Positions 8,836-27,323 of a stretch of DNA of 64,000 nt are shown here, in pieces. The notes under the pieces are model-generated. The model did not search any database and was not told the origin of the DNA. It was given only the letters and a program-made list of their open reading frames with translations. Each line of letters opens with the position of its first letter. Within the stretch, counting starts at the first letter, position 1. Location: the IMG/VR virus record IMGVR_UViG_3300021963_000036; one strand, written 5' to 3'. Made by a program: the position numbers and the translations under genes. The stretch comes from a virus (Duplodnaviria > Heunggongvirae > Uroviricota > Caudoviricetes).

Positions 8836-9960
8836 ATGCACTACAAGTTTCCTGAAATTCGCACGATCTATGATGTGTTGCTTGCGATCGAAGGTCGCCC
8901 AGAGTTCATCGTTGCCGAGCGCGACTTTGGCAAAGTGATCAACTACATGGTCTCGATGCCAGACACTTTCAAGATGGAAGGTCCTGACGACGTGATGGGT
9001 GCTATTCGTCGTGAGTGTCGAGGCTTGATCTTCGACGATGAAGGCAACATCATGTCTCGCCCGTATCACAAGTTCTTCAACGTGAACGAGAAAGAAGAGA
9101 CTCAGTCGCATCTTCTCGACTTGACTCGTGCTCACTCTGTGATGGATAAGTTGGATGGTTCTATGATCCGTCCGATCTGGATGCATGACACGGTTCGTCT
9201 TGCTACGAAGATGGGTGTGACTGACATTGCGATCGAAGCTGAGAAGCTGCTGGATTATGATCAGTGGACGTGGCTTGAAGATATGATGGTCGACAGTCTG
9301 ACTCCGATCTTCGAATACGTTGCTCCGACGAACAAGATCGTTGTTGAGTATGCTGAAGAAAAGCTAATCTTGACCGGTGTTCGCGAAAACGTTAGCGGTG
9401 AATATCGTAGCTTGCGCCAGTGGAATGCACCGTTTGAAATCGTTCGCACTGACTCGAATGTTCATGACTTCGATGCTTATCTTACTTTCAAGCGCGGTGA
9501 AACGAACCGTGAAGGTGACATCATCCGCTTTGCTGATGGACATATGATCAAGATCAAGAACGACTGGTACGTGCAAATCCACAAGACCAAGGACGTCGTT
9601 CGTGTTGATCGCAACATCGTTGAACTCGTACTAAACGAGACGATCGACGATACTCGCGCCGTACTTGATCCTTCGGACTTGGTTCGAGTCGATGAAGTCG
9701 AAGCTAACTTTTGGAAAGCTTTCGAGAATGTTGTTGGTCGATTGGAAGGGCTGGAACTCTTGGCTCGCACTATCTACGGTGCCGACAAGAAACGTATCGC
9801 TTTGGAAATGGCTCCGAACTTGATTAACAAACAGGATGCCGGTTTCATGTTCAAACTGATCGACGGTCATGACGTTCGTGAACTGTTGCTGACCCATTGT
9901 AAGAAGAACATCGGTTCGACTCCGAAGTATGATGAACTGATGGAATGGATGAAAGCATGA
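8836..9960 (+). CDS. rnlA: RNA ligase 1 (T4 Rnl1/gp63-like)
   Basis: HKFFNVNE (T4 Rnl1 has EKFFNLNE) and motif I MDKLDGSM; length matches T4 Rnl1. Confidence 0.8.
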   Translation: MHYKFPEIRTIYDVLLAIEGRPEFIVAERDFGKVINYMVSMPDTFKMEGPDDVMGAIRRECRGLIFDDEGNIMSRPYHKFFNVNEKEETQSHLLDLTRAHSVMDKLDGSMIRPIWMHDTVRLATKMGVTDIAIEAEKLLDYDQWTWLEDMMVDSLTPIFEYVAPTNKIVVEYAEEKLILTGVRENVSGEYRSLRQWNAPFEIVRTDSNVHDFDAYLTFKRGETNREGDIIRFADGHMIKIKNDWYVQIHKTKDVVRVDRNIVELVLNETIDDTRAVLDPSDLVRVDEVEANFWKAFENVVGRLEGLELLARTIYGADKKRIALEMAPNLINKQDAGFMFKLIDGHDVRELLLTHCKKNIGSTPKYDELMEWMKA

Positions 9961-10280
9961 CATCGGAAACTGAACTAAACTACTACGAAGAGCTTTGCAG
10001 ACTTAAGGTCCAATACAAAGCTCTTCGTGAAGAATACTTCTTGGTGTCAGCTTCTTCGCGCTTTCATGACATTGAAGAAGGAGACTTTTGTCCGGAGTGC
10101 AATGGTTCTGGCTACAAGTTGTATGGTTCTACCGCAACTTGGAGAGGTGGCATCGGCGGACAAGCTATGACTACTTCAGTATGTGATAAATGTTGGGGTT
10201 CTGGCTCTAAGTCGGCTCCTTGGCCATCATGGAGAGAATACGAAGCTCTAAAAGAAAGGTTGACAAATGACTCCGTTTAG
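9957..10280 (+). CDS. zinc-ribbon protein
   Basis: CPECNGSGYK ... CDKCWGSGSK paired CxxC motifs. Confidence 0.45.
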   Translation: MTSETELNYYEELCRLKVQYKALREEYFLVSASSRFHDIEEGDFCPECNGSGYKLYGSTATWRGGIGGQAMTTSVCDKCWGSGSKSAPWPSWREYEALKERLTNDSV

Positions 10281-10461
10281 AGTAGATTTTGATCAAGTAA
10301 ATTACATGAAATTTCGTCCAGGAACCAAACTTGTGCTTGGACCAGAAATTGCTATAGTGATGGCTTCGTGCAATAAAATTCCGCGCGTGTTCAAGCCTAT
10401 TGTTGATTTGTCAAAAATGATGCATCACCCTGAAGTCGAAGCACTTCTGTTTGGAGTATGA
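10267..10461 (+). CDS. hypothetical protein
   Basis: 64-aa ORF overlapping the upstream stop. Confidence 0.3.
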   Translation: MTPFRVDFDQVNYMKFRPGTKLVLGPEIAIVMASCNKIPRVFKPIVDLSKMMHHPEVEALLFGV

Positions 10462-10723
10462 CATGAAAGTACGTGAAGCGTTTCCCGGATTTACTACGCT
10501 GTTCAAGCACTGCCGTCCAGCCGCTGGTGATGCGGTTGTATATGAAGTCGATGCTGGAGCACCAGCCGATCCAAACCTTGTTATGAAAGCATCTTGCTTT
10601 GATGATGAGAAACCCGTTGGTGAAACGTTCGAGTTCATTATCTCTAAGGAATGGGTTCTTGAAAACATTGTAAGTATCCTAGCTGCGTACGAACCAGTTG
10701 ACAATGTAGCAAGTTCGGTATAA
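10451..10723 (+). CDS. hypothetical protein
   Basis: 90-aa ORF. Confidence 0.35.
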   Translation: MEYDMKVREAFPGFTTLFKHCRPAAGDAVVYEVDAGAPADPNLVMKASCFDDEKPVGETFEFIISKEWVLENIVSILAAYEPVDNVASSV

Positions 10724-10748
10724 TATCCGATTGAAATAGGAGATAAGA

Positions 10749-11870
10749 ATGTTCGAACGTAAACTAGCGTCTATTCGGCGCATCGCTGACATCCAACCGA
10801 TCGAAGGCGCTGATCAAATTGTAGTCGCCACCATCGATGGCTGGAAAGTTGTTGTTAAAAAAGATGAGTTTCGAGTTGGTGATCTTGCAGCATATCTTGA
10901 GATCGACTCGTGGGTTCCTCATGAACTCGCCCCATTCCTCTCGAAAGGTCAAGATCCTCGCGAATACAACGGTGTGAAAGGTGAACGCCTGCGCACTATC
11001 AAACTTCGCGGACAGGTTAGTCAAGGGCTGCTGCTTCCACTTCGGCCAGTGTTTGCAGAGTGGACTGATGAGAATTTTCAAAAGAATATTCTTGAAGATG
11101 AGGAACGTGTCGGCGACGATCTTACTGAAGCACTTGGCATCCAGAAATGGGAAGCTGTGCTGCCTGCACAACTTCAAGGTCAGGCCAAAGGCACGTTCCC
11201 AACGTCACTGATTCCAAAGACTGATCAAGAGCGTATTCAAAACTGCTTTGGTGAAATCCAAAAGCGGGCAAAGCGGTTCGCTACTGAGAAGGTCTGGAAT
11301 GCTGAGACTCAGACTCTGGAAGAGCATCCAGTTGTTGTTCCTACTGACTTCAAAGAACAGACCTACGAAGTCACCATGAAACTGGATGGTTCGAGTTGTA
11401 CTATCTTCCGCTGGGAAGACGAACTTCGTGTTTGCAGTCGGAACCTTGAGCTCAAGATCAACGATGAAAACAAAGACAACACCTTCGTTGCCATGGCTCT
11501 CAAGATCGGCGACCGTGTTCCTAATGGGTTTGCTTTTCAAGGTGAAGTGATGGGACCTGGCATTCAGGCCAACCGTGAAGGATTTATTGAACATAAGTTC
11601 TTCGTGTTTGATGTGTTCCTCATTAAAGAACATAAGTATGCCGGTCCAGCCTACCGGCGAGCGTTTTGCCAAGAATACGGATTCGAACACGTTCCAGTTC
11701 TTGAGCATAATCTCAAGGCACCCGTGAGCGTCGCAGAAGGTCTTGCTATGGCAGAAGGTCCGAGCATCAACCACAAGATCCGTGAAGGTCTTGTTTGGAA
11801 GTGCAACGAAGACCCGAGCTTCAGCTTCAAGACGATCAGCAATCAGTTCCTGCTGAAAGGTGGGGACTGA
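10749..11870 (+). CDS. second ATP-dependent RNA ligase, Rnl5/DraRnl-like, with an N-terminal OB/tRNA-binding-like domain
   Basis: Motif I MKLDGSSCTIF at residue ~211; the N-terminal 100 aa (IRRIADIQPIEGADQIVVATIDGWKVVVKKDEFRVGDLAAY) follows the Trbp111/CsaA OB-fold pattern. Confidence 0.55.
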   Translation: MFERKLASIRRIADIQPIEGADQIVVATIDGWKVVVKKDEFRVGDLAAYLEIDSWVPHELAPFLSKGQDPREYNGVKGERLRTIKLRGQVSQGLLLPLRPVFAEWTDENFQKNILEDEERVGDDLTEALGIQKWEAVLPAQLQGQAKGTFPTSLIPKTDQERIQNCFGEIQKRAKRFATEKVWNAETQTLEEHPVVVPTDFKEQTYEVTMKLDGSSCTIFRWEDELRVCSRNLELKINDENKDNTFVAMALKIGDRVPNGFAFQGEVMGPGIQANREGFIEHKFFVFDVFLIKEHKYAGPAYRRAFCQEYGFEHVPVLEHNLKAPVSVAEGLAMAEGPSINHKIREGLVWKCNEDPSFSFKTISNQFLLKGGD

Positions 11871-12175
11871 TGTGTAACTGCAAAGGATGGGACGTTGCGT
11901 TCTTCCAAGATGATGAGATCACGGTAGTACAGCACTTTTGTCGAGTGTATGGAGACTGTGGTCACGTCGATAACACCCTTGAAGAGGCTGCAGATCAAGT
12001 CGCCTCTGAATACGACAAGAACTATGATTGGTACTGTGATGCGAGAAATCGTGACATAGTAGAAGTCACAGACGAGAAACTCGATTGGTTGCTTGCTCAA
12101 GCGAAGTCTTGGAAAGATCGTACACATACGAGCTATTTGTACTACGCAATTGGCGAAAATATTGGCCTTTTGTGA
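11870..12175 (+). CDS. hypothetical Cys-rich protein
   Basis: ATG overlaps the upstream stop (TGATG); MCNCKGWD... frame. Confidence 0.35.
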   Translation: MCNCKGWDVAFFQDDEITVVQHFCRVYGDCGHVDNTLEEAADQVASEYDKNYDWYCDARNRDIVEVTDEKLDWLLAQAKSWKDRTHTSYLYYAIGENIGLL

Positions 12176-12237
12176 AAAAGGCTATTTACATCCTTTGTGA
12201 ATAGGGTTATACTATATTCATAGCCAAGGAGATAAAC

Positions 12238-12771
12238 ATGACTGTCAATGCTTCCGATCGTAACGGCCTCGAGCTTACCCCCGCTGCAGACACCTTGAAC
12301 GCCTACCGCTTGACTGCGGTAAACACCAAGACCAAGAAGTTCACAGCTTACGCAGCCGGTACTCGTAAATCGAACCAAGAGTTCAATATGTTCACGATCG
12401 GCTTATATGACGATCCTCGCGACGCTGCTTATGTTGCTCAAGAGTTCGAAAAGAAAGTCAGCAAATCTCAAGTTCGTGAGATGGTTACCGACAGTACTTT
12501 CGCTGAGTTTGCTAAAGACTTCCGGTCGAACATCGAAATCCCTGAGTGGGTCTACCCTGCTGAAGGTATGACGATCGACGAGATGCTGAACACCACCTAC
12601 AAACGCAACTATGTTCTCGATGCCCGTGAAGCTCTGGTTGAAGCGATCAACGTCTTCAAAAAGCCGGTTCCTTCTCTGAAAGATGCTGCAGCGATGATCA
12701 AGAAAGTTGAAGCTGCGGTGAAAGAAGGTATGACCCTCCGTGCAGCTGCGGCGAAAGTGATCGGCGCCTAA
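12238..12771 (+). CDS. hypothetical protein
   Basis: 177-aa ORF with AAGGAG RBS after a TTTACA-17-TATACT promoter (12185-12213). Confidence 0.45.
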   Translation: MTVNASDRNGLELTPAADTLNAYRLTAVNTKTKKFTAYAAGTRKSNQEFNMFTIGLYDDPRDAAYVAQEFEKKVSKSQVREMVTDSTFAEFAKDFRSNIEIPEWVYPAEGMTIDEMLNTTYKRNYVLDAREALVEAINVFKKPVPSLKDAAAMIKKVEAAVKEGMTLRAAAAKVIGA

Positions 12772-12808
12772 GCAAAACATAAATAGTAAGCAATATCATG
12801 GAGGAACC

Positions 12809-13567
12809 ATGCGCTTACTATTCATTCTTGCCCTCATCCCAACGTTTGCTTATGCAAATCCAATAGACGACAAATGCCCAGAGCACACCGCTCTGGGTGC
12901 TCCTATATCTAAGCTAGTTGAAGATACACAGTATGTATGTCATACCAACTATGCAATTCACTATCGCTTTGATACTAAGACTGCTGAATACGTAGTCGAG
13001 CATCTAGACGATGCTGACATCAATGGTCCAGCAAAGCGAAAAGACGACTTCAGACCAGACGATCAAATTCCAGCTGAGCATTCAGCAACGCTTGAAGATT
13101 ACTCTGGCGAACCATACGATCGTGGGCATCTAGTCCCAGGCGCAGACAATAAAGCAGATCAAGAGATCATGAGTGAAAGCTTCTTTCTTTCAAACATGGT
13201 TCCTCAAGTGCCAAACAACAACCGCGGTATCTGGAGAATGCTTGAGCTCAAAGTACGTAACTGGGCTCTTGAAAAGAGAGACCTCTATGTGGTCTCTGGT
13301 ACGATCTATGAAGAAGGATACAAGACCATCGGTGATGGTAAAGTTGGTGTCCCTACGTACCTCTGGAAGGTTGTGTATGATAAGACTACCAACACAACCG
13401 TGGCATACCTCATGCCGAACGCTGAGCTTCCAGTGAATGATCTACCAAAGTACGTAACCACAGTAGACCAAGTTGAAGAACTTACTGGTCTGAATATCTT
13501 CCCACAGCTTGAAGAATCTGCAGAAGGCGTTGCAAATCCTGAAGTATGGACCAACATTTCTGATTGA
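12809..13567 (+). CDS. secreted DNA/RNA non-specific endonuclease (Serratia NucA family)
   Basis: N-terminal signal peptide MRLLFILALIPTFAYA; active-site DRGHLVP and Mg-site FFLSNMVPQ motifs. Confidence 0.8.
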   Translation: MRLLFILALIPTFAYANPIDDKCPEHTALGAPISKLVEDTQYVCHTNYAIHYRFDTKTAEYVVEHLDDADINGPAKRKDDFRPDDQIPAEHSATLEDYSGEPYDRGHLVPGADNKADQEIMSESFFLSNMVPQVPNNNRGIWRMLELKVRNWALEKRDLYVVSGTIYEEGYKTIGDGKVGVPTYLWKVVYDKTTNTTVAYLMPNAELPVNDLPKYVTTVDQVEELTGLNIFPQLEESAEGVANPEVWTNISD

Positions 13568-13616
13568 CATTTTTCCTTCTGTGGTGTAGAGTTGAACCAT
13601 AGAAGGAGATTACACA

Positions 13617-14072
13617 ATGAAAAAAGGCGAACTCCTGAGCAAGATGCTCCATATCGCTACTAATGCCCACCACGGCCAGTTTGATCGTGGTGGCAATCCC
13701 TACATCCTGCATCCGATCAAAGTGATGCACTACATCAAATCCGAAGACGAAGAGCTGCAGTGTATCGCACTTGGCCATGACGTAATCGAAGATACAGATG
13801 TGACCTTCCTCGATCTTGTCGATGCTGGAATGACCACTCGAGTTATTGAGGGTATCCGAGCTCTGACAAAGATGCCGGGGCAAACCTACGATGAATACAA
13901 AGAAGGCGTCTTCAAGAATGTTGATGCCATGAAAGTCAAGTTGGCGGATCTTCGCCATAATACAGACGTGCGCCGGCTGAAAGGTGTCTCTGAAAAAGAC
14001 ATCGCCCGCATGGAAAAGTACCATCGTTTCTACCTTGAAATCAACTTCCGCTTGAAGGAACTCGAAAAATGA
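13617..14072 (+). CDS. HD-domain (p)ppGpp hydrolase (small alarmone hydrolase, Mesh1/SpoT-like)
   Basis: HGQFDRGGNPYILHP ... LGHDVIEDT motifs; 151 aa. Confidence 0.75.
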   Translation: MKKGELLSKMLHIATNAHHGQFDRGGNPYILHPIKVMHYIKSEDEELQCIALGHDVIEDTDVTFLDLVDAGMTTRVIEGIRALTKMPGQTYDEYKEGVFKNVDAMKVKLADLRHNTDVRRLKGVSEKDIARMEKYHRFYLEINFRLKELEK

Positions 14073-14485
14073 AACCGTTTAAGATCAACCGTAGCTCTTG
14101 GCACTACAAACTGAACCAGCACTTCTTTAACATGGAAGGAAGTAGCGAATATTGGATGCAACGGGACTGGGAACCGAAGCACAACACCTTCTGTTCATAT
14201 TGGCGCGCAACGATGTTTCGCTTCATTTTTGCGTCTGCACTCATGGCCTTTTTTGGTACGCTTTTCACTGCTCTTGGAGTAGCAACTTATCAAGACCCGT
14301 TTGCGGCACTCATCACGTTCCTTTCGATCGCCACTGTTTTTGGTTCGGTTATCGGTTCTTTCGCGATCTTTCAATACTTCAAAAATCGTAGCGAAAAGAA
14401 CAGCAATGAACCTAAGTCGCTGTTCGTTCAGAAATACCGTGCATACAAATCGAAAGTATGCCCAATGGTGGAATTCGAAAAATGA
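14069..14485 (+). CDS. membrane protein
   Basis: two or three predicted TM helices (FIFASALMAFFGTLFTALGV..., ALITFLSIATVFGSVIGSFAIF). Confidence 0.45.
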   Translation: MKPFKINRSSWHYKLNQHFFNMEGSSEYWMQRDWEPKHNTFCSYWRATMFRFIFASALMAFFGTLFTALGVATYQDPFAALITFLSIATVFGSVIGSFAIFQYFKNRSEKNSNEPKSLFVQKYRAYKSKVCPMVEFEK

Positions 14486-15126
14486 AAACTCGTCTGATCG
14501 GAGACATTCACGGTGAATGGGAACTCTATCATCAAACCGCAACTGATGCGATCAATTCCGGATGCGAACGCACGATCCAAGTTGGTGACTTCGGTGTTGG
14601 ATTCTCTGGTCCATATTGGCACGACCGCGCTGACGAATTTCACTGGGACCGAACGCATCGCTTCATCCGTGGCAATCATGATGATCCATCACGTTGCAAG
14701 AAAATGTCTGGCTGGATTCAAGATGGCCTTATCGAAAATGACGTGATGTTCATCGGTGGTGCATGGTCAATCGACCATATGCTACGCACTGAAGGAACTT
14801 CTTGGTGGGCTGATGAAGAACTATCGATGGAAGAACTCTATCGCATGATCGAGATCTATGAGCAGGTCAAGCCTCGAGTTATGATCACTCATGACTGTCC
14901 GCAAGAAGTAAGCACAGCGATGTTCATTCAAACCGGTCTTGCTTTGTTCAAAGGGAATGCTAAGACTATTCCTACTCGAACTGCAATGGCATTCAGCACG
15001 ATGCTTGATATTCACCAGCCCGATGAGTGGTATTTCGGACATTGGCATAACACAATGCAATACAAACATGGGCGTACGATGTTCCAGTGTCTTGGTATTC
15101 ATGATTATGTGGACGTAGAACTATGA
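14482..15126 (+). CDS. Ser/Thr-phosphatase-like metallophosphoesterase (lambda-PPase fold)
   Basis: GDIHGEW, VGDFG and RGNHDD motifs; start taken at MKTRLIGDIHG. Confidence 0.7.
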   Translation: MKTRLIGDIHGEWELYHQTATDAINSGCERTIQVGDFGVGFSGPYWHDRADEFHWDRTHRFIRGNHDDPSRCKKMSGWIQDGLIENDVMFIGGAWSIDHMLRTEGTSWWADEELSMEELYRMIEIYEQVKPRVMITHDCPQEVSTAMFIQTGLALFKGNAKTIPTRTAMAFSTMLDIHQPDEWYFGHWHNTMQYKHGRTMFQCLGIHDYVDVEL

Positions 15127-15332
15127 CCGAATATAATCCATTCACTGAGTGTGAAGCAATGAGTTCTGAACATGGTACCGGATGGTCGGTTGTTTCAAAA
15201 TATTGGAGCATCCCATGCGCAAATGAAGGTACAGCCAAACGTATTGCCGAGATTATTAAATTTGCTTATCACCGCGGTGTATCTGATAATCAAAACATGA
15301 TAAAAAAGGTAATGGGAATTCCGTATGAATGA
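15123..15332 (+). CDS. hypothetical protein
   Basis: 69-aa ORF coupled to its neighbours. Confidence 0.35.
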   Translation: MTEYNPFTECEAMSSEHGTGWSVVSKYWSIPCANEGTAKRIAEIIKFAYHRGVSDNQNMIKKVMGIPYE

Positions 15333-15651
15333 ATATAGACCAGATAATTGGGTAGTGATCAAAATCAAAGGCGATGACCCTCACTACAAAGTTCTTGCTG
15401 GCTGGTCTGGTGGATATACTACAGGTGATTCGTGGCGTATGAACAGCGGCATCACTATGGTTGACGAGATCGAGAATGCGTTTATGTTCAAGGGGTCTAC
15501 TGGTTCAGTGTACACATGTCGTAAGGAAAGTTATTGCTTGCGCATGAACAATGCACACGTCTGGGCTCGGCTTCAAGAGCTTCATGGTGACAAAGTCGAA
15601 CTCATGCCAGAAGATACCGACTGGATGAACATTGATTGGATCATTAAATGA
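15325..15651 (+). CDS. hypothetical protein
   Basis: 108-aa ORF. Confidence 0.4.
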   Translation: MNEYRPDNWVVIKIKGDDPHYKVLAGWSGGYTTGDSWRMNSGITMVDEIENAFMFKGSTGSVYTCRKESYCLRMNNAHVWARLQELHGDKVELMPEDTDWMNIDWIIK

Positions 15652-16121
15652 TTGACCTGTCCACTTTTGATAAAGGTGGCTTTGGAAAAGTCGACCACTC
15701 TCTTGTGAATAACTGGACTTGGGATTCACTTGGCGAGATGGTTAAACATATCGCACAAAACGATATCCGCCGATACTCCCCACTTGGAGACGGCGGATTC
15801 GCTTGTTGGGGTTGTGAACCTTGGTTCAAAGAGGTGTTGGACTTTCTTCAGCCTCTTAAGCCGGAGTACCAACCTCGTGCCGCAGCATATTGTAGCACAA
15901 GCGATACTTCTAAGTCCTTTGATCTTCATCGTGATCATGAGCAGTATATCTGGGTTTGGCAAATCATTGGGTCGACTCCTTGGCAGGTAGAGGATACTGA
16001 GTTTGTACTCGAAACAAATGAGTTGCTCTATGTTAGTCCTAACATGCTACACTGCGCCAAACCAAACTCACCGCGTGCAAGCATCACATTTTCTCTCGAA
16101 AAAGAGCATTTTTATGGTTGA
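15648..16121 (+). CDS. hypothetical protein (possible cupin-like fold)
   Basis: 157-aa ORF; His-rich LHRDHEQYIWVW segment. Confidence 0.35.
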   Translation: MIDLSTFDKGGFGKVDHSLVNNWTWDSLGEMVKHIAQNDIRRYSPLGDGGFACWGCEPWFKEVLDFLQPLKPEYQPRAAAYCSTSDTSKSFDLHRDHEQYIWVWQIIGSTPWQVEDTEFVLETNELLYVSPNMLHCAKPNSPRASITFSLEKEHFYG

Positions 16122-16146
16122 CATTACTTTCGTGATGTAATAGTAT
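16118..16146 (+). promoter_or_regulatory. sigma70-type promoter (TTGACA-17-TAGTAT)
   Basis: ttgaca at 16118-16123, tagtat at 16141-16146. Confidence 0.45.
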
Positions 16147-16189
16147 GTACACATAGGCAATAGGAATCATAACGGTCAAGGAGGACCAT

Positions 16190-16818: not shown

Positions 16819-16828
16819 GGAATATACA

Positions 16829-17668: not shown

Positions 17669-17672
17669 GTGG

Positions 17673-17701: not shown

Positions 17702-17725
17702 ATTCATGTAAGCAAGGAGCTACTC

Positions 17726-17926: not shown

Positions 17927-17937
17927 GGAATAAAAAT

Positions 17938-19182: not shown

Positions 19183-19203
19183 ACTTTAATAAGGAAATGG
19201 ATA

Positions 19204-19641: not shown

Positions 19642-19644
19642 TAT

Positions 19645-20128: not shown

Positions 20129-20192
20129 CATTTTTTCAACTTATGATAGACTGAATAAATATGGTCGCATGACCTAACATAGGAGAACTAAA

Positions 20193-20477
20193 ATGGCTAA
20201 AAAGGGTGGTAAAAGCAAAGGCTTCATCTCGAAGGGCATTCACAGCAATGTGAGCCGTAAGATCACGAATGCTATGCGTTCCGAGTATCTGCAATCGGGT
20301 GAACGCGTCCTGAACCAAATGGCAGCTTTGCGTAAAGGTAAGGATGTAGTTATGACCATTGCGAATCCGAATAAAGAACAGACGAACAAGAAGTTCATCA
20401 AAGTTCGCATCTCGGGCAAAGAGTTTGTTCAACGTCTGAAGGATAACTCGCGTGTCCAGAAGACTGTCGAGGCGTAA
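20193..20477 (+). CDS. basic small protein (possible nucleic-acid binding)
   Basis: 94 aa, Lys/Arg-rich; preceded by a TTGACA element at 20125. Confidence 0.4.
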   Translation: MAKKGGKSKGFISKGIHSNVSRKITNAMRSEYLQSGERVLNQMAALRKGKDVVMTIANPNKEQTNKKFIKVRISGKEFVQRLKDNSRVQKTVEA

Positions 20478-20731
20478 TGATTACGATCTACGGCGCAGAA
20501 TGGTGCGCATGGTGCAAGAAAGCTAAAGAGCTTGCCGAAGATCAACAACTGAAATATGAATGGAAGGACGTCGAAGATCTTTCCATTTATGACGAGATGA
20601 AGTCACGTATCCCTGCAGGAAAAACAACCATTCCTCAGATATTCTGGGATAAACGGCACATCGGTGGATACACTGACTTTGCGATGGAAATAGAAAATAC
20701 ATCTGGAGGATACGGTGATGGAAAATTCTAA
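20477..20731 (+). CDS. nrdC: glutaredoxin/thioredoxin (NrdC-like)
   Basis: MITIYGAEWCAWCKKAKEL CxxC active site; 84 aa. Confidence 0.7.
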   Translation: MITIYGAEWCAWCKKAKELAEDQQLKYEWKDVEDLSIYDEMKSRIPAGKTTIPQIFWDKRHIGGYTDFAMEIENTSGGYGDGKF

Positions 20732-20963
20732 AGTTATCGAACTATTAAAAGAAGAAGTTGTAGATATCGAATTTACAAAGAAAGACGGCACACGTCGTAT
20801 TATGACGTGTACTCTTATGCCTGAAAAGCTTCCTAAACAAATTGATGTTGAAGAAGTTGCTCTCAATACAGAGTCGCTTGCCGTCTTTGATCTTATTAAT
20901 CAAGGCTGGCGCTCTTTCCGTTGGGATAGCCTTGAAAAGGTTAATGGAGAATCTTTTGTCTAA
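20715..20963 (+). CDS. hypothetical protein
   Basis: 82-aa ORF overlapping both neighbours. Confidence 0.3.
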   Translation: MMENSKVIELLKEEVVDIEFTKKDGTRRIMTCTLMPEKLPKQIDVEEVALNTESLAVFDLINQGWRSFRWDSLEKVNGESFV

Positions 20964-21855
20964 TAACCCTGCACGGGGTGGAACAGAACTCATGGCGGAT
21001 CGGATTAACTCCCTTCCGCCTGAGTTGCTTTCTCACTTCCAAATTATTCATTCACGAGTGCGTGAACTTGATTCTACTAAGAAGAAGATTCTAGTTCTAC
21101 ATGATCTAGCCGGCGATCCTGAAGTCCAGCATCTCAGAAACGATGGCTGGAAGAAATTTGATAAGCTTGTATTTGTTAGCCATTGGCAACAACAGATGTA
21201 CAACGCATACCTTGGTGTTCCGTTTGACGCTGGGGTTGTTCTACAAAACGCAATTGAACCTATTGGCATCCATCTGAAAAAGGCTGATAAGGTTCGTCTG
21301 ATGTACTTCTCGACTCCTCATCGTGGTCTTGAGTTGTTATACCCATCATTCAATCATTTGTACAAGAAGTACGGTGACAAGATCGAACTGAATGTGTTCT
21401 CTTCTTTCAACCTCTATGGTTGGGAAGAACGTGATAAGCAATATGAGTCAGTATTCAAGTTGTTGAAAGCACATCCTGGAATCAACTACTCGAAAGCGGT
21501 GTCTAACGAAACAATTCGTGAAGAACTGAAGCGTTCGCATATTCTAGCTTATCCATCTATCTGGCAAGAGACTTCGTGTTTAGTCTTGATCGAAGCGATG
21601 TGTGCTGGACTCACGTGTGTTCATTCATCACTCGCAGCACTTCCTGAGACAGCTTTGGGTTGTACATACATGTATGATTATACTGAGAACCAGATCACAC
21701 ATATGCAGAGGTTCACTCAGACTCTTGACGAAGCTATTCAGGATGTTGCCGATGATATGTCAATGTCAGAAGATCGTATTGAATTCGTCAACGAGACATA
21801 CTCGTGGCACAACAGAAAACTGCAATGGGAAAACCTGTTGACATCTCTCCTGTGA
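20944..21855 (+). CDS. glycosyltransferase (GT-B / GT1-like)
   Basis: C-terminal ...ILAYPSIWQETSCLVLIEAMCAGLTCV resembles the GT1 E-x7-E region; alternative start at ATG 20992. Confidence 0.45.
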   Translation: MENLLSNNPARGGTELMADRINSLPPELLSHFQIIHSRVRELDSTKKKILVLHDLAGDPEVQHLRNDGWKKFDKLVFVSHWQQQMYNAYLGVPFDAGVVLQNAIEPIGIHLKKADKVRLMYFSTPHRGLELLYPSFNHLYKKYGDKIELNVFSSFNLYGWEERDKQYESVFKLLKAHPGINYSKAVSNETIREELKRSHILAYPSIWQETSCLVLIEAMCAGLTCVHSSLAALPETALGCTYMYDYTENQITHMQRFTQTLDEAIQDVADDMSMSEDRIEFVNETYSWHNRKLQWENLLTSLL

Positions 21856-21885
21856 TGGAGTATAGTTTGACTGAAGGAGTAAACT

Positions 21886-23094
21886 ATGGCAAAAGCATCA
21901 CTTAAGACTATTACGGCTAAGAAGAAGAAACCGGATCTTAAACCGGTTCCTCAACGCAAGTCAAGCGCAGCCAAGATCCTTGAAGAACGGCATATCGGTG
22001 CAGAGATCACCGATTGGTCGACTGTTAAAAACATGGATCACGCGATCTATCAGAACCTTCGTAACTATGGTTACTTCTATGATCATAAAGAAGCTTTTGG
22101 TTGGGCTACCACTTGGGTAAAGAAACACCGTACAGCTTCAGAACTTGCTGACTTCAAAGAGTCTGAAGATTGGCGCGTGAATACTACACTTGGTGGGCTC
22201 GCAAAAATGCATATGGCTGGTGCACCTCTCGAAGAGAAGTATATGAAGCGTTTGAATGATGGTATCAACGCTGCTATCAAAGCCGGTGCAGCAAATCGTG
22301 CTGTAACAGAAGCAGCTTTAAAAACTATGCCGGTGAAAACCGCTGCAGACGTTTTGAATAGTCGTATCAGTGACTTTATTGCTGAAGTCGAGTATGTGAT
22401 TGATCTTTATCATGATCCGAAGACGTGGGTTGATGGTGAGAACTATTCGGTGTTTAATGAACTCAAAAAGATCGCTGCGCCAAAGCCTTTGGCACAAAGT
22501 GTGTACGACTATTACAAACCGCTGTATGATGAGATTGATGAACTCATCACAAACAAGACGCCAGATCTTGTTGAAGGCTATGGACATCTGAAGACTGCTA
22601 AAGAAAAGAAAGACTATTGGTCCTTCATCAAGAATATCATCGATGATTGCCAAAAGTATCAGAACGCTCAAGCCGCAACTAAAGTCCGTGCTGTTCGTCA
22701 GCCACGCGCTAAGAAGAAAATTCCTGTTGAAAAACTTGTTGCTAAGGTTCAATATCAAAAAGAAAGTGCTGAATACAAACTCACTTCAGTCGACCCTGCA
22801 AATGTGATTGGCGCAACTGATGTATATCTATTCAACACGAAGAGTCGACAGCTCATCCAACTGGTTGCAGCTTCAGTCGATGGGTTTAGTATCCGTGGTA
22901 CAACTATCACAAACTTCTCAGAGACATCATCTTGGCGAAAGACTTTGCGTAAGCCTGAAGAAGTTCTTACAAGTATCGGTAAAACGACCAAAGCACGAGT
23001 TGCAAAGGTATTCATTGATATTACGACAAAGGCTGCTCCGGCAAACGGTCGACTCAATGAAGATACAATCATCCTGAAAGTGTTTAAGGGTTGA
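21886..23094 (+). CDS. hypothetical protein
   Basis: 402-aa ORF with strong GAAGGAG RBS. Confidence 0.5.
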   Translation: MAKASLKTITAKKKKPDLKPVPQRKSSAAKILEERHIGAEITDWSTVKNMDHAIYQNLRNYGYFYDHKEAFGWATTWVKKHRTASELADFKESEDWRVNTTLGGLAKMHMAGAPLEEKYMKRLNDGINAAIKAGAANRAVTEAALKTMPVKTAADVLNSRISDFIAEVEYVIDLYHDPKTWVDGENYSVFNELKKIAAPKPLAQSVYDYYKPLYDEIDELITNKTPDLVEGYGHLKTAKEKKDYWSFIKNIIDDCQKYQNAQAATKVRAVRQPRAKKKIPVEKLVAKVQYQKESAEYKLTSVDPANVIGATDVYLFNTKSRQLIQLVAASVDGFSIRGTTITNFSETSSWRKTLRKPEEVLTSIGKTTKARVAKVFIDITTKAAPANGRLNEDTIILKVFKG

Positions 23095-23119
23095 CATTTG
23101 AAAAAAAGTGATATATACT
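23091..23119 (+). promoter_or_regulatory. sigma70-type promoter (TTGACA-17-TATACT)
   Basis: ttgaca at 23091-23096, tatact at 23114-23119. Confidence 0.5.
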
Positions 23120-23150
23120 TATCTAGTTATAAATTCTCAGGAGCTCTAAC

Positions 23151-24005
23151 ATGGCCATTCTGGTCGATCTAAATCAAGTAATGATTGCTAACCTTATGGT
23201 TCAAATTGGCAATCATCATAACGCCGAAGTTGACGAGAACATGATTCGTCACATGGTACTTAACTCTATCCGGTATAATCGGGTAAAGTTTAAAGATGAG
23301 TTTGGTGAACTCATCATCTGCGCTGATGATAAGAATTATTGGCGTCGAGCGCAATTTCCCTACTACAAAGCAGCCCGTCGCAAGAATCGTGAAGAGTCAG
23401 AACTCGATTGGTCTTCGATCTTTGCAGCACTGAATAAAGTTCGTCAAGAACTGAAAGACGTGTTTCCGTACAAAGTCATTCAAATCGACGGCGCTGAAGC
23501 TGATGACATCATTGGTACGATTATCCACAAAGAAGGTAAGCTTCTGAATGCTGGTGAAAAGTTCCTTATTCTATCAGGTGATAAGGACTACATCCAACTT
23601 CATAAGTATGCAAACGTAAAGCAATACAATCCGGTGATGAAGAAATTCGTGGTTCATTCGAATCCTGAAGAGTATCTATTTGAGCACATCGTTAAAGGCG
23701 ATGCTGGAGATGGTGTGCCTAACATCCTTTCTCCGGATAACTCCTTTGTTCTTGGTATCCGTCAGAAGCCGGTTACTAAGAAGAGATTGGAAGAGTGGCT
23801 TGATATAAATAAGATGAGTTCAGAAGTTAAGCGCAACTATTTGCGTAACAAAGCACTCATCGATCTATCAGAGATTCCCTCGCATATCCAAGAAAAAATC
23901 ATCGAAGAATATGAACGTGAAAACACGAAAGATCGGTCGCAACTTCTCAACTTTTTTATCCAAAACAGATTGAAACTGCTCACTGAAAATCTCGGTGAGT
24001 TTTGA
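23151..24005 (+). CDS. rnh: RNase H / 5'-3' flap exonuclease (T4 rnh-like)
   Basis: IRHMVLNSIRYN (T4: VRHLILNSIKFN) and LHKYANVKQYNPVMKKF (T4: LHKYPNVKQWSPMHKKW); acidic metal-site residues conserved. Confidence 0.85.
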   Translation: MAILVDLNQVMIANLMVQIGNHHNAEVDENMIRHMVLNSIRYNRVKFKDEFGELIICADDKNYWRRAQFPYYKAARRKNREESELDWSSIFAALNKVRQELKDVFPYKVIQIDGAEADDIIGTIIHKEGKLLNAGEKFLILSGDKDYIQLHKYANVKQYNPVMKKFVVHSNPEEYLFEHIVKGDAGDGVPNILSPDNSFVLGIRQKPVTKKRLEEWLDINKMSSEVKRNYLRNKALIDLSEIPSHIQEKIIEEYERENTKDRSQLLNFFIQNRLKLLTENLGEF

Positions 24006-24017
24006 CCGGAGAACCAA

Positions 24018-24497
24018 TTGAGTAATACACGTTCATTATCAGAAATCGTGACTAAAGCATGCGAAATGAAAACCCAAGAAGAAAAGGTATCTTGGCTTAA
24101 AGAAAACAATAGCGAAGCATTACGCACGATTCTAACTGTCATGTTTGACAAAGCAAACTTTGTGTGGAATATCCCGAGTGATTCGATTCCACCCTATAAA
24201 CCATCACCGCATGTAGAGTCTCATGGTATGTTGTATCGTCAGACCCGTAAACTTCGATACTTTATCAAAGGGTACGACGGTGAAAATCTAAGTCAATATC
24301 GTAGAGAGTTCTTGTTTATTGAGATGCTCGAAAGCATTGATCAAGAAGACGCTAAGCTTATGGAAAAAGTCCTTCTACAGACACCACCTGATGGACTCAC
24401 ATTAAACGCAGTAAATGAGGCACTTGGCCTTACTATTGCTACTACAGACGAAAAACCTGAACCGAAGAAAAGAGGCAGAAAACCTAAAAATGTCTAA
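24018..24497 (+). CDS. hypothetical protein
   Basis: 159-aa ORF. Confidence 0.45.
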   Translation: MSNTRSLSEIVTKACEMKTQEEKVSWLKENNSEALRTILTVMFDKANFVWNIPSDSIPPYKPSPHVESHGMLYRQTRKLRYFIKGYDGENLSQYRREFLFIEMLESIDQEDAKLMEKVLLQTPPDGLTLNAVNEALGLTIATTDEKPEPKKRGRKPKNV

Positions 24498-24663
24498 GAA
24501 GCAGAAGAATTTTAAAGAATGGCATGATGACGAGTGGGGTACATCTGACGATGTTAAGCGAGATGGAAAGCGCTACAACGCAAAGAAAGAGTTCGTAAAA
24601 CAAGAAAGAGATCGTAAGTCTCGTCAGAAAAATAGCTTCTTTGAGATTGATAAGAGCAATTGA
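24494..24663 (+). CDS. hypothetical basic small protein
   Basis: 57 codons, Lys/Arg-rich, overlapping the upstream stop (ATGTCTAAG). Confidence 0.3.
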
Positions 24664-24688
24664 CATTTCTTCGGGAATGACTTAATAT
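24660..24688 (+). promoter_or_regulatory. sigma70-type promoter (TTGACA-17-TAATAT)
   Basis: ttgaca at 24660-24665, taatat at 24683-24688. Confidence 0.5.
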
Positions 24689-24714
24689 ACAATGTAACTG
24701 AGTGAAAGATAGAT

Positions 24715-25296
24715 ATGAATCTCGCGAAAAAAGTAATTCTAGTCGACGCAGACGGTGTTCTGCTTGACTGGTTCCATAGTTTTGCACAATGGATGAACTT
24801 CCATGGATACCCCATCGTTGTAAATGATGAGTATCAAATTGAAAAGACTTTTGATATTCCTAAGGAACAAGCAAAAGCTCTTGCTCGGCACTTTAATGAA
24901 AGTGCACGAATCGAACACCTTCCGCCCTTTCGTGATGCTATCAAATATGTCCGTAAGCTTCACGAAGAACACGGTTATGTATTCCACTGTATCACATCGT
25001 TGAGTTCTGATCCTTTTGCTGGACACCTGAGGCAGAAGAACTTAAAAGCGCTGTTTGGTGAAACTGTGTTCGAAAAAATCATGTGTCTCGATACTGGTGC
25101 TGATAAAGATGAAGCTTTGGCACCATACAAAGACACTGGCTGTATCTGGGTAGAAGACAAGTTTGAAAATGCTATGGCTGGCCTGAATGCGGGATTGACT
25201 CCATTCTTGCTAGATCATGGGCACAACAAAAATCAGCATCATCCTGACATCCAACGTGTAAATAACTGGCGCCACATTTATGAGTTGATTGTCTAA
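24715..25296 (+). CDS. HAD-superfamily 5'(3')-deoxyribonucleotidase-like hydrolase
   Basis: ILVDADGVLLDW is the HAD motif I (DxDG). Confidence 0.6.
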   Translation: MNLAKKVILVDADGVLLDWFHSFAQWMNFHGYPIVVNDEYQIEKTFDIPKEQAKALARHFNESARIEHLPPFRDAIKYVRKLHEEHGYVFHCITSLSSDPFAGHLRQKNLKALFGETVFEKIMCLDTGADKDEALAPYKDTGCIWVEDKFENAMAGLNAGLTPFLLDHGHNKNQHHPDIQRVNNWRHIYELIV

Positions 25297-25300
25297 TAGA

Positions 25301-25308
25301 TATAAATA
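25301..25308 (+). promoter_or_regulatory. candidate T4-late-type promoter TATAAATA
   Basis: tataaata inside the near-palindrome AGATATAAATATCT, 58 nt upstream of ATG 25366. Confidence 0.3.
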
Positions 25309-25325
25309 TCTTTGTGGTAGTGAAC

Positions 25326-25353
25326 AAAGGGATCCTACGGGGTCCCTTTTTTA
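25326..25353 (+). terminator. rho-independent terminator
   Basis: AAGGGATCC-tacg-GGGTCCCTTTTTT. Confidence 0.7.
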
Positions 25354-25365
25354 TTGGAGACAAAT

Positions 25366-25600
25366 GATGCCAACTTATACATTCAGAAACGAATCAACCG
25401 AAGAGGAAGTAACGCACTTCATGACTTGGGCTGAACGTGAAGAATTTGTTAAACAAAACCCCGACTTCAAACAGATTCTCACTGCACCAGCTATTGCTGA
25501 TTCAGTGCGTCTAGGTGTGCGAAAAATTGATAGAGGCTTTAACGACGTCCTTCAGAAAGCCAAAAGCGCGCATCTACATTCAACTATCGAGACACTCTAA
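25366..25600 (+). CDS. hypothetical protein
   Basis: 78-aa ORF beginning MMPTYTFRNE. Confidence 0.4.
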
Positions 25601-25614
25601 CACAAGGACCAATA

Positions 25615-26367
25615 ATGCCTCTGCAACAACAAGCAAGAATAACTAAGCGGCAGAAACGAATTAGTAAGCAACAAGGGATGCACGACGAGACTAGAGAACC
25701 AAAAGCGTTCTTAATGAAAGATGATATTAGTCCCATGACAGACAACCAGCGTGTTGCATTTGACCAGTGGGATGATGGATATAACCTAATGCTGCATGGC
25801 ATCGCGGGAACAGGTAAAACTTTCATCGGTATGTATTTAGCACTCAGCGAAGTACTCAAAACAAGTTCACCATATAGAAAAGTCTATATTGTTCGTTCTA
25901 CAGTGTCGACTCGCGATCAAGGGTTTCTTCCAGGATCGCTTAAAGATAAAGCCAAAGTCTTTGAAGCTCCATATGTTCCAATTGCAACCAAACTATTTGG
26001 TCGCGGTGATGCGTATGAAGTCTTGAAAGGAAAGGGCATAATCGAGTTCATCACTACGTCTTATCTTCGTGGCGAAACATTTGATAACTGCATTTTGCTT
26101 GTTGACGAAGTTCAAAATATGGGTGACGGAGAACTTCACACGGTTATGACTCGCGTTGGAGAAAATTGCCGGATCTTGTTCTGTGGAGACGTTAAGCAGG
26201 ATGATCTTACATCTGAACGTAAGAAAGAATTGTCTGGTCTACGAGACTTCATGAGAATCATCCAGCATATGCGTGAATTTGAGTTTGTTAATTTTGAGAT
26301 TGAAGATATTGTTCGTTCGAAGCTCGTTAAGTCCTACATCATAGAAAGAGATAGACTAGGACTATGA
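25615..26367 (+). CDS. phoH: PhoH-family ATPase
   Basis: Walker A GIAGTGKT, Walker B ILLVDEVQN, and PhoH-like C-terminal region. Confidence 0.85.
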   Translation: MPLQQQARITKRQKRISKQQGMHDETREPKAFLMKDDISPMTDNQRVAFDQWDDGYNLMLHGIAGTGKTFIGMYLALSEVLKTSSPYRKVYIVRSTVSTRDQGFLPGSLKDKAKVFEAPYVPIATKLFGRGDAYEVLKGKGIIEFITTSYLRGETFDNCILLVDEVQNMGDGELHTVMTRVGENCRILFCGDVKQDDLTSERKKELSGLRDFMRIIQHMREFEFVNFEIEDIVRSKLVKSYIIERDRLGL

Positions 26368-26552
26368 GCGCAAAAATTACAGGTATATCACGAGTAAAAA
26401 CCGATGTTGACGGTGAACCATATATAGAATTCAATCCTCGTCTCCTAGCCCAAGTGGGCTGGGATGACAGGACTCTTCTCGAATGGGAAGTGATGGGCAA
26501 CATGGCTGTCATAAGGAAGAAAGAAGATGGCGGGAATAGCACGACAAGGTGA
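26364..26552 (+). CDS. small protein with AbrB/MazE-like swapped-hairpin pattern
   Basis: KITGISRVKTDVDGEPYIEFNPRLLAQVGW resembles SpoVT/AbrB/MazE N-terminus; weak. Confidence 0.3.
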   Translation: MSAKITGISRVKTDVDGEPYIEFNPRLLAQVGWDDRTLLEWEVMGNMAVIRKKEDGGNSTTR

Positions 26553-26826
26553 TTCAGTAGCAACTGGACATTTATGTGATACTACAACTACTTTAGACAC
26601 ACCTGGACAGTCGACTGTTTTTGTCGACGGTATCCTTGTTGCATGTCAAGGTGATTTAACAGTAACTCACGACTATAAGGTCGGTGATGCATGTGTACCC
26701 CATGTTGCATCAATTTCTGGTGCGACTTCAACTGTAAAGATCGGTGGTATATCCATCGCAAAATTAGGCGATGCTTGTGATGCAGGATCTATCACTAGTG
26801 CGTCATCAACTGTATTCATAGGATAA
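26527..26826 (+). CDS. PAAR-repeat spike-tip protein (T4 gp5.4-like)
   Basis: Three PAAR-like repeats: ARQGDSVATGHLC, VFVDGILVACQGD, VKIGGISIAKLGDAC; 99 aa. Confidence 0.6.
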   Translation: MAGIARQGDSVATGHLCDTTTTLDTPGQSTVFVDGILVACQGDLTVTHDYKVGDACVPHVASISGATSTVKIGGISIAKLGDACDAGSITSASSTVFIG

Positions 26827-26828
26827 TC

Positions 26829-27323
26829 ATGATAGGATTCAGGCAGTTTATGGAAAGAGCACCAACAAAGAAGTACGTAGCCGTACAGTATGATGCCGCC
26901 ACTCAGAAGAAGCTTCGTAAATGGGCTGAAGACAATGGTTTTGACTTGTCAACAAAGTACGACGGAACCAAACAGGATCCAGAAGACTTCGACTTTCATA
27001 CGACGATCTTCTTCACGTCTTCAGAGCACGATATTCCAAACTATATCAAGACAATTGCCCCGTCTGGAAGCGCAAAAGTAGTTGACATTATGATGCTTGG
27101 GGTTAATAATGACATACCTGTTCTGAAGATAGAATCACCTATGGTGTTACGTCTGCGTAAGCACTATGAGGATGCTTTCGATATGAAAGACGAGTGGCCT
27201 GAGTACAAGCCACATGTTTCCATATCGTACTCGAAAGATCTGCCTGACATGAACAAAGTGAAACTACCAACGTTTGAACTAACGTTTAACCAAGTGAAAG
27301 TTGATGATGGAGCAAGTTCGTAA
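26829..27323 (+). CDS. 2H phosphoesterase (LigT / 2',3'-cyclic phosphodiesterase-like)
   Basis: Two H-x-T/S-x motifs: FHTTIFF and PHVSISY, ~90 aa apart. Confidence 0.5.
   Translation: MIGFRQFMERAPTKKYVAVQYDAATQKKLRKWAEDNGFDLSTKYDGTKQDPEDFDFHTTIFFTSSEHDIPNYIKTIAPSGSAKVVDIMMLGVNNDIPVLKIESPMVLRLRKHYEDAFDMKDEWPEYKPHVSISYSKDLPDMNKVKLPTFELTFNQVKVDDGASS

Follow-up and report, generated by a model that had tools for sequence, protein, structure and literature searches.

Putative stand-alone enzymes of tRNA and translation care among counter-defence genes in the variable early region of an uncultured T4-like myophage

Jumbo 'and related smaller' phages were described by Iyer et al. (2021) as carriers of several RNA ligases, polynucleotide kinase (Pnk), HAD, 2H, calcineurin-like and HD phosphatases and a CCA-adding enzyme (PMC7824862); an HD alarmone phosphodiesterase also belongs to this repertoire, as does PTH2 for ribosomes that have jammed, and it was interpreted as serving RNA repair and ribosome rescue (PMC7824862). 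From jumbo phages of Sinorhizobium and Agrobacterium, tRNA nucleotidyltransferase, peptidyl-tRNA hydrolases and RNA ligases have been reported, and Sinorhizobium phage AP-J-162 has a tmRNA as well (PMC11242549). In this article we analyse a comparable group of genes, predicted to care for tRNA and translation, in a 64,000-nucleotide stretch of the IMG/VR virus record IMGVR_UViG_3300021963_000036 (this whole stretch is called the window), with the emphasis on positions 8836-27323. We favour, with modest confidence, the reading that this is a variable early region of stand-alone enzymes, each directed to one tRNA or translation lesion and interleaved with counter-defence genes, and not one dedicated pathway; the substrates of the enzymes are predicted from family membership. 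The features concerned are the following.

8836-9960, + strand: Rnl1-type ATP-dependent RNA ligase, 374 amino acids
10749-11870, + strand: Rnl5 (NgrRnl/DraRnl-type) RNA ligase, 373 amino acids
13617-14072, + strand: small HD hydrolase, Aph1-like (p)ppApp hydrolase candidate, 151 amino acids
14482-15126 (open reading frame from 14458; start according to the public gene call), + strand: calcineurin-like metallophosphoesterase (MPE), 214 amino acids
16417-16818, + strand: divergent Pth2-like hydrolase candidate with motifs NPGKxMAQ and DPTYPWRN, 133 amino acids
17938-19182 (open reading frame from 17914), + strand: class II CCA-adding tRNA nucleotidyltransferase with C-terminal HD domain, 414 amino acids
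19204-19641, + strand: YqeY/GatB-tail domain protein, 145 amino acids
26829-27323, + strand: Acb1-family 2H phosphoesterase, anti-CBASS cyclic-nucleotide nuclease candidate, 164 amino acids
36108-36526, + strand: two-piece (permuted) tmRNA of the alphaproteobacterial type, found with Rfam and ARAGORN
3560-4120, + strand: second metallophosphoesterase (MPE2), 186 amino acids, outside 8836-27323

The inventory of parts and the rationale, defence against tRNA attack, are those of the jumbo-phage repertoire (PMC7824862), but there are clear differences: the genome of the window, about 141 kb or more, is not of jumbo size, the ligases are of the Rnl1 and the Rnl5/NgrRnl types, the window is without Pnk, RtcB and RlaP, and its Pth2 represents a divergent subfamily below the Pfam threshold. 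The same dispersed set is also annotated in the Sinorhizobium phage phiN3 (Emdodecavirus, together with phiM12), where a YqeY-like 'tRNA amidotransferase', NMNAT, NAMPT, an aminoacyl-tRNA hydrolase, a metallophosphoesterase, Rnl5-type and Rnl1-type ligases, a tRNA nucleotidyltransferase and a RelA/SpoT-family protein lie within 32 kb, with dozens of unrelated open reading frames (ORFs) interspersed. Unlike the window, phiN3 encodes a macro-domain protein in the vicinity of its Pth2-like gene and has another gene order, whereas the window adds Acb1, with a tmRNA nearby. The proteins of the window are 34-47% identical to those of Sinorhizobium phages of the T4 superfamily, which are distant relatives without nucleotide similarity. 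The initial annotation of this DNA had pointed to a region with many enzymes for tRNA or RNA ends, and this is borne out, also by the recurrence of the same set in related phages; that the set would be unusual was overstated, since phiN3 has the same set annotated and the concept has been published for jumbo phages. Both what was observed and how it was interpreted thus exemplify an idea that is already in print, here for a new uncultured lineage, and the window adds an abundant, uncultured aquatic T4-like lineage to the phages that are heavily invested in the upkeep of tRNA and ribosomes during infection.

The whole region gave no match by megablast against 50,697 phage records, and the relatives had to be reached via proteins. 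Two sets of relatives were used: 79 loci from IMG/VR for which the Pth2-like gene served as anchor, with their neighbours clustered, and 43 loci anchored on the Pnk phosphatase. Single loci are designated by an L number where it is needed.

At the level of sequence, the Rnl5-type ligase is the strongest call of the set. Pfam finds an N-terminal PHA02142 OB domain at residues 6-98 (106 bits) and a C-terminal nucleotidyltransferase domain, RNA_ligase, at residues 205-361 (92.5 bits); the structure of the Naegleria RNA ligase (5cot, NgrRnl) is matched with an E-value of 3.4e-63, and the score of 176.3 bits against TIGR02306 (RNA_lig_DRB0094) is above the cut-off of 151.15. The Rnl1-type ligase reaches 84.4 bits against Pfam RNA_lig_T4_1 (cut-off 28.3), and the T4 Rnl1 structure 2c5u matches its residues 59-358 with an E-value of 1.7e-27. 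Its motifs I (KxDG), IV (EG) and V (KxK), namely DKLDGS, NREGD and IKIKNDWY, align with TKEDGS, NIEGY and FKIKSDWY of T4. The Rnl1-specific C-terminal helical domain is present as well, the 2c5u alignment reaching residue 362 of the 374 in T4, with the C-terminal third only weakly similar. The protein belongs to phrog_562 (E-value 1e-66), labelled 'RNA ligase and tail fiber protein attachment catalyst' in PHROG, and as a divergent member it stays below the equivalog cut-off of TIGR02308 (148.7 versus 242.25). The two ligases would seal tRNA or RNA breaks that already bear 3'-OH and 5'-phosphate ends. PIN or Toprim nucleases that depend on metal leave ends of this kind. An ORF at 9945-10280 overlaps the last 16 nucleotides of the Rnl1 gene and encodes a 111-amino-acid protein whose zinc-finger motifs (CxxC...CxxCxGxG) are of the DnaJ or Anti-TRAP type; in phiN3 a DnaJ-annotated gene stands two genes past Rnl1.

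In the CCA-adding enzyme the PolyA_pol head, the PolyA_pol_RNAbd body and the HD domain are all found above the Pfam cut-offs, and the GGxVRD, DxD, RRD, EDxxR and HD motifs can be read in the translation. NF008137 (multifunctional CCA addition/repair protein) aligns over its full length with 433.2 bits, narrowly below the cut-off of 451, and phrog_2244 is matched with an E-value of 2e-113. The enzyme would rebuild trimmed tRNA 3' ends, and 2',3'-cyclic or 2'-phosphate at 3' ends may be cleared by its HD domain, as the HD domain of the E. coli CCA enzyme can clear phosphates there. The YqeY gene starts 22 nucleotides past the CCA gene, and the two are neighbours in L001, L002 and L027 as well; its product matches PF09424 over residues 13-139 of 145 with 42 bits (cut-off 27), and also phrog_1460. 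Directly after these two genes there is a nucleoside 2-deoxyribosyltransferase-like protein (19604/19646-20128, 97.8 bits), which is kept together with both of them in close relatives.

Judged by its matches in the PDB, the small HD protein resembles a (p)ppApp-specific Aph1 and not a generic ppGpp hydrolase: the (p)ppApp hydrolase Aph1 (7smg) is matched over residues 5-140 with an E-value of 3.4e-26, against 6e-13 or weaker for the RSH hydrolase domains. It also belongs to phrog_990 (E-value 7e-57). D23, R120 and Y135 align with D24, R119 and Y134 of Aph1, where D24 and R119 are the determinants of (p)ppApp specificity and Y134 is a conserved tyrosine that probably touches the pyrophosphate of the substrate (PMC10083569). 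The small alarmone hydrolase of the initial annotation could thus be confirmed and made more precise, as an Aph1-like protein, by the 7smg match and the specificity residues. Small alarmone hydrolases (SAH) restore tRNA that has been pyrophosphorylated at the CCA end (10.1101/2021.04.30.441581), and the phage SAH PaSpo neutralises toxic small alarmone synthetases (toxSAS) (PMC9712102). The enzyme of the window is comparable to Aph1 and to phage SAH enzymes such as PaSpo, as a single HD domain of 151 amino acids with the specificity residues of Aph1 kept; unlike them, it is encoded in a lytic T4-like phage, without an adjacent toxin gene, and the candidate substrates are (p)ppApp, (p)ppGpp and the 3'-pyrophosphate of tRNA. 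It would destroy (p)ppApp and possibly also the 3'-pyrophosphate added to A76 by toxic alarmone synthetases; removal of the toxSAS mark is plausible because the A76 3'-pyrophosphate is chemically an adenosine 3'-pyrophosphate. Upstream of this gene, at 12809-13567, a non-specific DNA/RNA endonuclease (Endonuclease_NS, 171 bits) with an apparent N-terminal signal peptide is encoded, which is conserved in L004-L006; the signal peptide suggests a secreted or periplasmic nuclease among the early genes.

Identification of the Pth2-like protein required profiles and structure prediction. Its ORF is listed as 16318-16818, and the true start is the ATG at 16417, overlapping the stop of the preceding gene, with which the public gene calls concur. 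There is no Pfam match at an E-value of 0.01 or below, and none was obtained in NCBIfam or in the direct sequence search of the PDB. The 117 homologues are all from metagenomes or phages, and 14 of them, at 43-53% identity, have precomputed PF01981 matches; no member of the family turned up when 185,579 bacterial and archaeal species genomes were scanned with a pattern. When a profile of 29 sequences was compared with the PDB, the top four matches were all Pth2 structures (1rlk 7e-4, 1xty 4e-3). The AlphaFold model has a mean predicted local distance difference test (pLDDT) value of 92.7, and the first 11 Foldseek matches in the PDB are all Pth2 chains (probability 1.00, template modelling score 0.56-0.80). 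The invariant K20, within NPGKxMAQxxHA (the Pth2 motif is GKxxAQxxHA), aligns with K18 of the Sulfolobus Pth2 1xty, which we take to be the catalytic residue. An invariant D89 heads the family motif DPTYPW; the DPTYPWRN segment, invariant in the family, was not aligned by hmmsearch or hhalign to the canonical Pth2 motif DAGxT, whose Asp is the second catalytic acid, and in the hhalign comparison with an approximate human PTRH2 sequence it was the N-terminal lysine motif alone that aligned. Because of the profile matches, the K20 alignment and the eleven top Foldseek matches, a Pth2 fold of a divergent subfamily is supported by the predicted model. A PTH2-like candidate had been proposed earlier, and it fails the Pfam model PF01981, while the profile search and the predicted fold speak for it. 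This enzyme, perhaps together with the MPE that is usually encoded upstream, would free tRNA from peptidyl or N-blocked aminoacyl adducts.

In the MPE the motifs DxH, GD, GNHD, H and GHxH are invariant across 22 homologues, and phrog_1649 is matched with an E-value of 1e-37. Its score against PF00149 (18.5) is below the cut-off of 21.5, and the direct sequence search of the PDB gave no usable match, so that a fold search was needed: with the AlphaFold model (pLDDT 92.7) the RNA debranching enzyme Dbr1 is the best match (E-value 2e-8), followed by GpdQ, purple acid phosphatase, Rv0805 and Mre11. MPE2 is of an unrelated family. It has the motifs DTH, GD and GNHD, scores 22 bits, below the cut-off, against Pfam Metallophos_2, and matches 1xm7 (aq_1665) in the PDB with an E-value of 3e-9 and phrog_547 with 5e-51; its homologues adjoin the Pth2-like gene or Pnkp/Rnl1 in relatives. 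Two metallophosphoesterases had been placed within 8836-27323, and this stands for the MPE, whereas the second one, MPE2, lies outside, and no others were found in the window. Between the MPE and the Pth2-like gene, at 15648-16121, a 157-amino-acid cupin with an HxD...H triad is encoded, with a marginal match to JmjC_2 (23.4 bits, cut-off 22). Ribosomal-protein oxygenases are among the members of JmjC_2.

The tmRNA exceeds the gathering thresholds of two Rfam models, RF01849 alpha_tmRNA (102.7 versus 50) and RF04321 tmRNA_permuted (94 versus 47), and ARAGORN reports a permuted tmRNA at 36115-36526 with the tag ANENSAPVAYALAA, which ends in ALAA. It is situated between CobS-like and VWA genes, and its nearest matches in cultured phages are Sinorhizobium phage Phosso and the SsrA of Melnitz. 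Two-piece tmRNAs are already known from Melnitz-like and pelagimyophage genomes (PMC9004378), and the window resembles these in the permuted alpha-type tmRNA and in being a T4-like aquatic myophage of about 141 kb. Unlike in Melnitz, no glutamine riboswitch was detected within or beside the tmRNA of the window, and the two tmRNAs match by blastn over about 60 nucleotides only, with 81% identity. The RNA would rescue ribosomes that were stalled by tRNA or translation damage. In summary of the domain evidence, the Rnl1-type ligase (RNA_lig_T4_1 and 2c5u), the Rnl5-like ligase with an OB domain (PHA02142 and RNA_ligase domains, 5cot and TIGR02306), the CCA-adding enzyme with HD domain (three Pfam domains and the full-length NF008137 alignment), the YqeY/GatB-domain protein (above the Pfam cut-off) and the tmRNA candidate at 36 kb (both Rfam thresholds and ARAGORN) have all held up as they were first called.

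The 2H protein, by contrast, had been taken for a LigT-like phosphoesterase; its two HxT/S motifs are indeed there, but it misses the LigT threshold and passes that of Acb1. With 2_5_RNA_ligase2 (PF13563, LigT-type) the match is partial (residues 102-144) and reaches 21.8 bits, below the cut-off of 27, whereas Acb1 (PF23474) gives 43.7 bits, above the cut-off of 27; the best match in the PDB is the Acb1 structure 7t26, with FHTT and PHVS aligned to LHTT and PHIT. Compared with the solved Acb1 it scores about 20 bits and is thus a distant member, for which the activity on cyclic nucleotides is predicted. Acb1 degrades the cyclic oligonucleotide signals of CBASS, the cyclic oligonucleotide-based antiphage signalling systems. 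By its family assignment the 2H protein is Acb1, a separate category of counter-defence which is not part of RNA repair, and it would belong to another fight, the degradation of CBASS signals. Therefore one of the two routes proposed for end-healing falls away, and healing by the 2H enzyme was not borne out. This correction, as well as that of the HD protein to Aph1-like, concerns annotations which would otherwise spread. A PAAR-motif protein (26527-26826) is encoded immediately upstream of Acb1, and a PD-(D/E)XK nuclease (27947-28663) about 0.6 kb downstream, with one ORF (27301-28002) between; the order PAAR, Acb1, PD-(D/E)XK is found in L010 too.

The position of the tRNA-care genes among their neighbours was then compared with that in relatives. 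In the window they are split by unrelated ORFs, among them the putatively secreted Endonuclease_NS, membrane and secreted proteins, a glycosyltransferase and the cupin. In 8238-27110, the 13 sigma-70-like promoter matches that score best (at least 10/12) are all on the + strand and most of them stand in gaps just before ORFs, with a perfect or near-perfect TTGACA and a spacer of 16-17 nucleotides. The four that precede tRNA-care genes are listed here, all as matches to the consensus.

10698-10726, + strand: promoter candidate before the Rnl5 gene, TTGACA-17-TAATAT, 10/12
13564-13592, + strand: promoter candidate before the HD hydrolase-MPE unit, TTGACA-17-TAGAGT, 10/12
16118-16146, + strand: promoter candidate before the Pth2-like unit, TTGACA-17-TAGTAT, 10/12
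17673-17701, + strand: promoter candidate before the CCA-YqeY unit, TTGACA-17-TATTCT with extended TG, 10/12

From these consensus matches, Rnl5, HD-MPE, Pth2-like and CCA-YqeY appear to belong to at least four separate early transcription units. The regular pattern of the 13 promoter matches resembles that of early regions in T4. The same genes recur across the related loci in varying combinations and orders. One association is recurrent: in 19 of the 28 loci with a Pth2-like gene of at least 40% identity an MPE precedes this gene on the same strand at a distance of 9 to about 3,200 nucleotides, and two other loci have MPE2 in its place, most of the remaining ones being without upstream sequence. 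Some loci are very compact, such as L011, with HD hydrolase, Rnl1, Rnl5, MPE, Pth2-like, Pnk phosphatase and YqeY packed in 8.5 kb. By guilt by association these neighbourhoods suggest an RNA-centred role of the MPE/Pth2-like pair.

T4 counters PrrC with Pnkp and Rnl1, and the Rnl1 of the window is like that of T4 in having the ligase motifs and the C-terminal region and in being an early gene. Unlike T4, however, the window has neither the kinase nor the HAD phosphatase of Pnkp, and it adds Rnl5, CCA, Pth2-like, MPE and Aph1-like genes that T4 lacks. Many relatives do carry the full trio: two of their recurrent ORFs, both absent from the window, encode a 172-amino-acid AAA_33 kinase (62.9 bits) and a 149-amino-acid HAD protein (PF25109 HAD_PNKP, 105 bits). 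According to these domain matches, this is a T4-type Pnkp split into two ORFs, usually beside Rnl1, for example in L014 (2617-9240), in L018/L071 (9273-13553) and in the loci L088-L124, and such clusters support an RNA-repair theme for the neighbourhood. In the 43 phosphatase-anchored loci the kinase was present in 30, Rnl1 in 27, MPE2 in 11, the MPE in seven and the Pth2-like gene in five; from the first two numbers it follows that the healing-and-sealing trio is common in the aquatic T4-like clade and usually adjoins Rnl1. The Pnk kinase and phosphatase ORFs of the relatives gave a best E-value of 0.17 by tblastn against the 64-kb window, and Pfam found no AAA_33 or HAD_PNKP match among the scanned ORFs of the window. 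The earlier statement that no polynucleotide kinase is recognised is correct for these 64 kb. A HAD protein encoded at 24715-25296 came into question as a Pnkp phosphatase in disguise, but it is NT5C-like (30 bits) and was therefore rejected; its match to the polynucleotide-kinase PHROG is marginal (E-value 5e-4), with no stretch passing. PhoH (25615-26367) was likewise considered as the missing kinase and rejected, as an ordinary P-loop ATPase of the PhoH family. Contig look-ups beyond the window ended without an exact product in two cases, with a 10.6-kb variant contig without extra upstream DNA in one, and with downstream tail and baseplate genes only in another. The comparison of the kinase-less window with its Pnkp-bearing relatives is a natural one, and could reveal the host nucleases that are answered by these ligases.

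Breaks of the PrrC, RloC and colicin type have ends that carry 5'-OH and a 2',3'-cyclic phosphate. As neither a 5'-kinase nor a 3'-phosphatase of the Pnkp type is present in the window, repair of anticodon-nuclease cuts in the style of T4 is not supported, and the earlier proposal that the richer set would repair anticodon-loop cuts of PrrC, RloC or colicin-like enzymes finds no support either. The genes might still form one coordinated pathway that heals and seals such cuts, in which the metallophosphoesterases or the HD domain of the CCA enzyme replace the phosphatase of Pnkp and a kinase has escaped recognition. This would agree with the MPE and Pth2-like genes standing directly beside HAD_PNKP, the AAA_33 kinase and Rnl1 in L014, L018/L071, L011 and L041, with the RNA phosphodiesterase Dbr1 as the best structural match of the MPE model, and with the proposal that in some jumbo phages healing is the task of calcineurin-like and HD phosphatases (PMC7824862). 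We nevertheless consider it unlikely: besides the missing kinase and phosphatase and the assignment of the 2H candidate to Acb1, the tRNA-care genes seem to lie in separate early units amid unrelated genes, because of which a single pathway is not shown, and the low counts of the Pth2-like gene and the MPE at the phosphatase-anchored loci (5/43 and 7/43) indicate that the core trio is independent of both. There are, on the other hand, points which weigh against our reading of stand-alone enzymes. In L018/L071 the MPE, Pth2-like, Pnk phosphatase, Pnk kinase and Rnl1 genes follow in this order within 4.3 kb, and in L010 Rnl5, MPE and Pth2-like abut; such tight clusters in relatives speak for more functional coupling than independent enzymes would imply. 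The promoter sites are matches to a consensus only, and their total of 42 does not clearly exceed the 33.6 ± 6 expected after shuffling. A kinase could be encoded elsewhere in the genome of at least 141 kb. Finally, Rnl1 may by analogy be kept for tail-fibre attachment and not for RNA repair, since T4 Rnl1 additionally promotes this attachment.

By a housekeeping explanation the genes would serve the needs of the phage itself and not counter-defence: the CCA enzyme and YqeY would mature phage-encoded tRNAs, Rnl1 would attach tail fibres, and the tmRNA with the Pth2-like enzyme would sustain the small translation apparatus of a streamlined host while it is loaded with the synthesis of phage proteins. 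The label of phrog_562, which includes tail fiber attachment, and the inheritance of the set, clade-wide and not sporadically acquired, are in line with it; for Melnitz it was proposed that the tmRNA maintains the hijacked translation machinery, or else recycles host proteins (PMC9004378). Yet no tRNA gene was found in the 64-kb window, among the neighbours there are genes that clearly serve counter-defence (the Aph1-like hydrolase, an NAD salvage pair and Acb1), and the assembly of tail fibres hardly explains two different RNA ligases, so we regard housekeeping as improbable. A further view, to which we give little credence, is that the Pth2-like protein and the MPE constitute a phage-only two-enzyme module which clears blocked tRNA 3' ends and, together with the CCA enzyme and the Aph1-like hydrolase, would provide a kinase-independent repair of the acceptor end. 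In such a module the Pth2-like enzyme would remove peptidyl or N-acyl-aminoacyl groups and the MPE a 3'-phosphate, cyclic phosphate or pyrophosphate, and the targets would be toxins that act on the CCA end (toxic alarmone synthetases, GNAT acetyltransferases and CCA-trimming nucleases). If true, this acceptor-end route would differ from the anticodon-loop repair of T4. The recurrent MPE/Pth2-like pair, defined solely by gene neighbourhood, may be the sole new element of the set; it did not turn up in the pattern scan of bacterial and archaeal species genomes, and it offers biochemistry a concrete target at little expense. We retain the reading of stand-alone enzymes for single lesions, among which Acb1 and the NAD salvage pair would fight other defences.

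The window belongs to a T4-like myophage, in which gp59, gp32, RNase H and baseplate proteins (T4_baseplate, gp53, gp25, gp6 and gp8-like) were found by Pfam scans, which also detected the CobS-like AAA_5/CbbQ_C ATPase. All genes from 0.2 to 42 kb are on the + strand. Among cultured phages no gp32 is more than 50% identical to the one encoded here, the best matches being those of a Stenotrophomonas phage, of cyanophages and of the OM43 phage Melnitz. From position 11753 to its end at 64000 the window agrees with a metagenome contig of 129.6 kb in ENA at 100% identity, and the Pth2-like protein was found on a 141.3-kb contig as well; the phage genome has at least about 141 kb, of which the window covers 64 kb. 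The host of this uncultured aquatic T4-like myophage is probably an alphaproteobacterium, since the tmRNA scores best with the alphaproteobacterial model, all of the 32 cultured phages with a Pth2-like homologue infect Alphaproteobacteria, and the MPE homologues listed at 40% identity or more come from phages of Sinorhizobium, Rhizobium and Ruegeria.

At the start of the window there are two genes which presumably match the phage route of NAD reconstitution (NadV/NatV, 'NARP2') against NAD-depleting defences.

252-1304: bifunctional NMNAT (CTP_transf_like) and Nudix protein
1954-3405: NAMPT, which pairs with the NMNAT-Nudix protein

In phiN3 the NMNAT/NAMPT pair is likewise near the Pth2-like gene. 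Downstream of the tmRNA, at 38138-39118, a PstS-type phosphate-binding protein (PBP_like_2, 162 bits) is encoded; as an auxiliary metabolic gene it is typical for T4-like phages from the sea. On the - strand, at 46196-46708, amid tail-tube and baseplate genes, there is a protein with a TnsA-like endonuclease N-terminal domain (79 bits), which may represent the insertion of a mobile or homing-type nuclease into the structural module.

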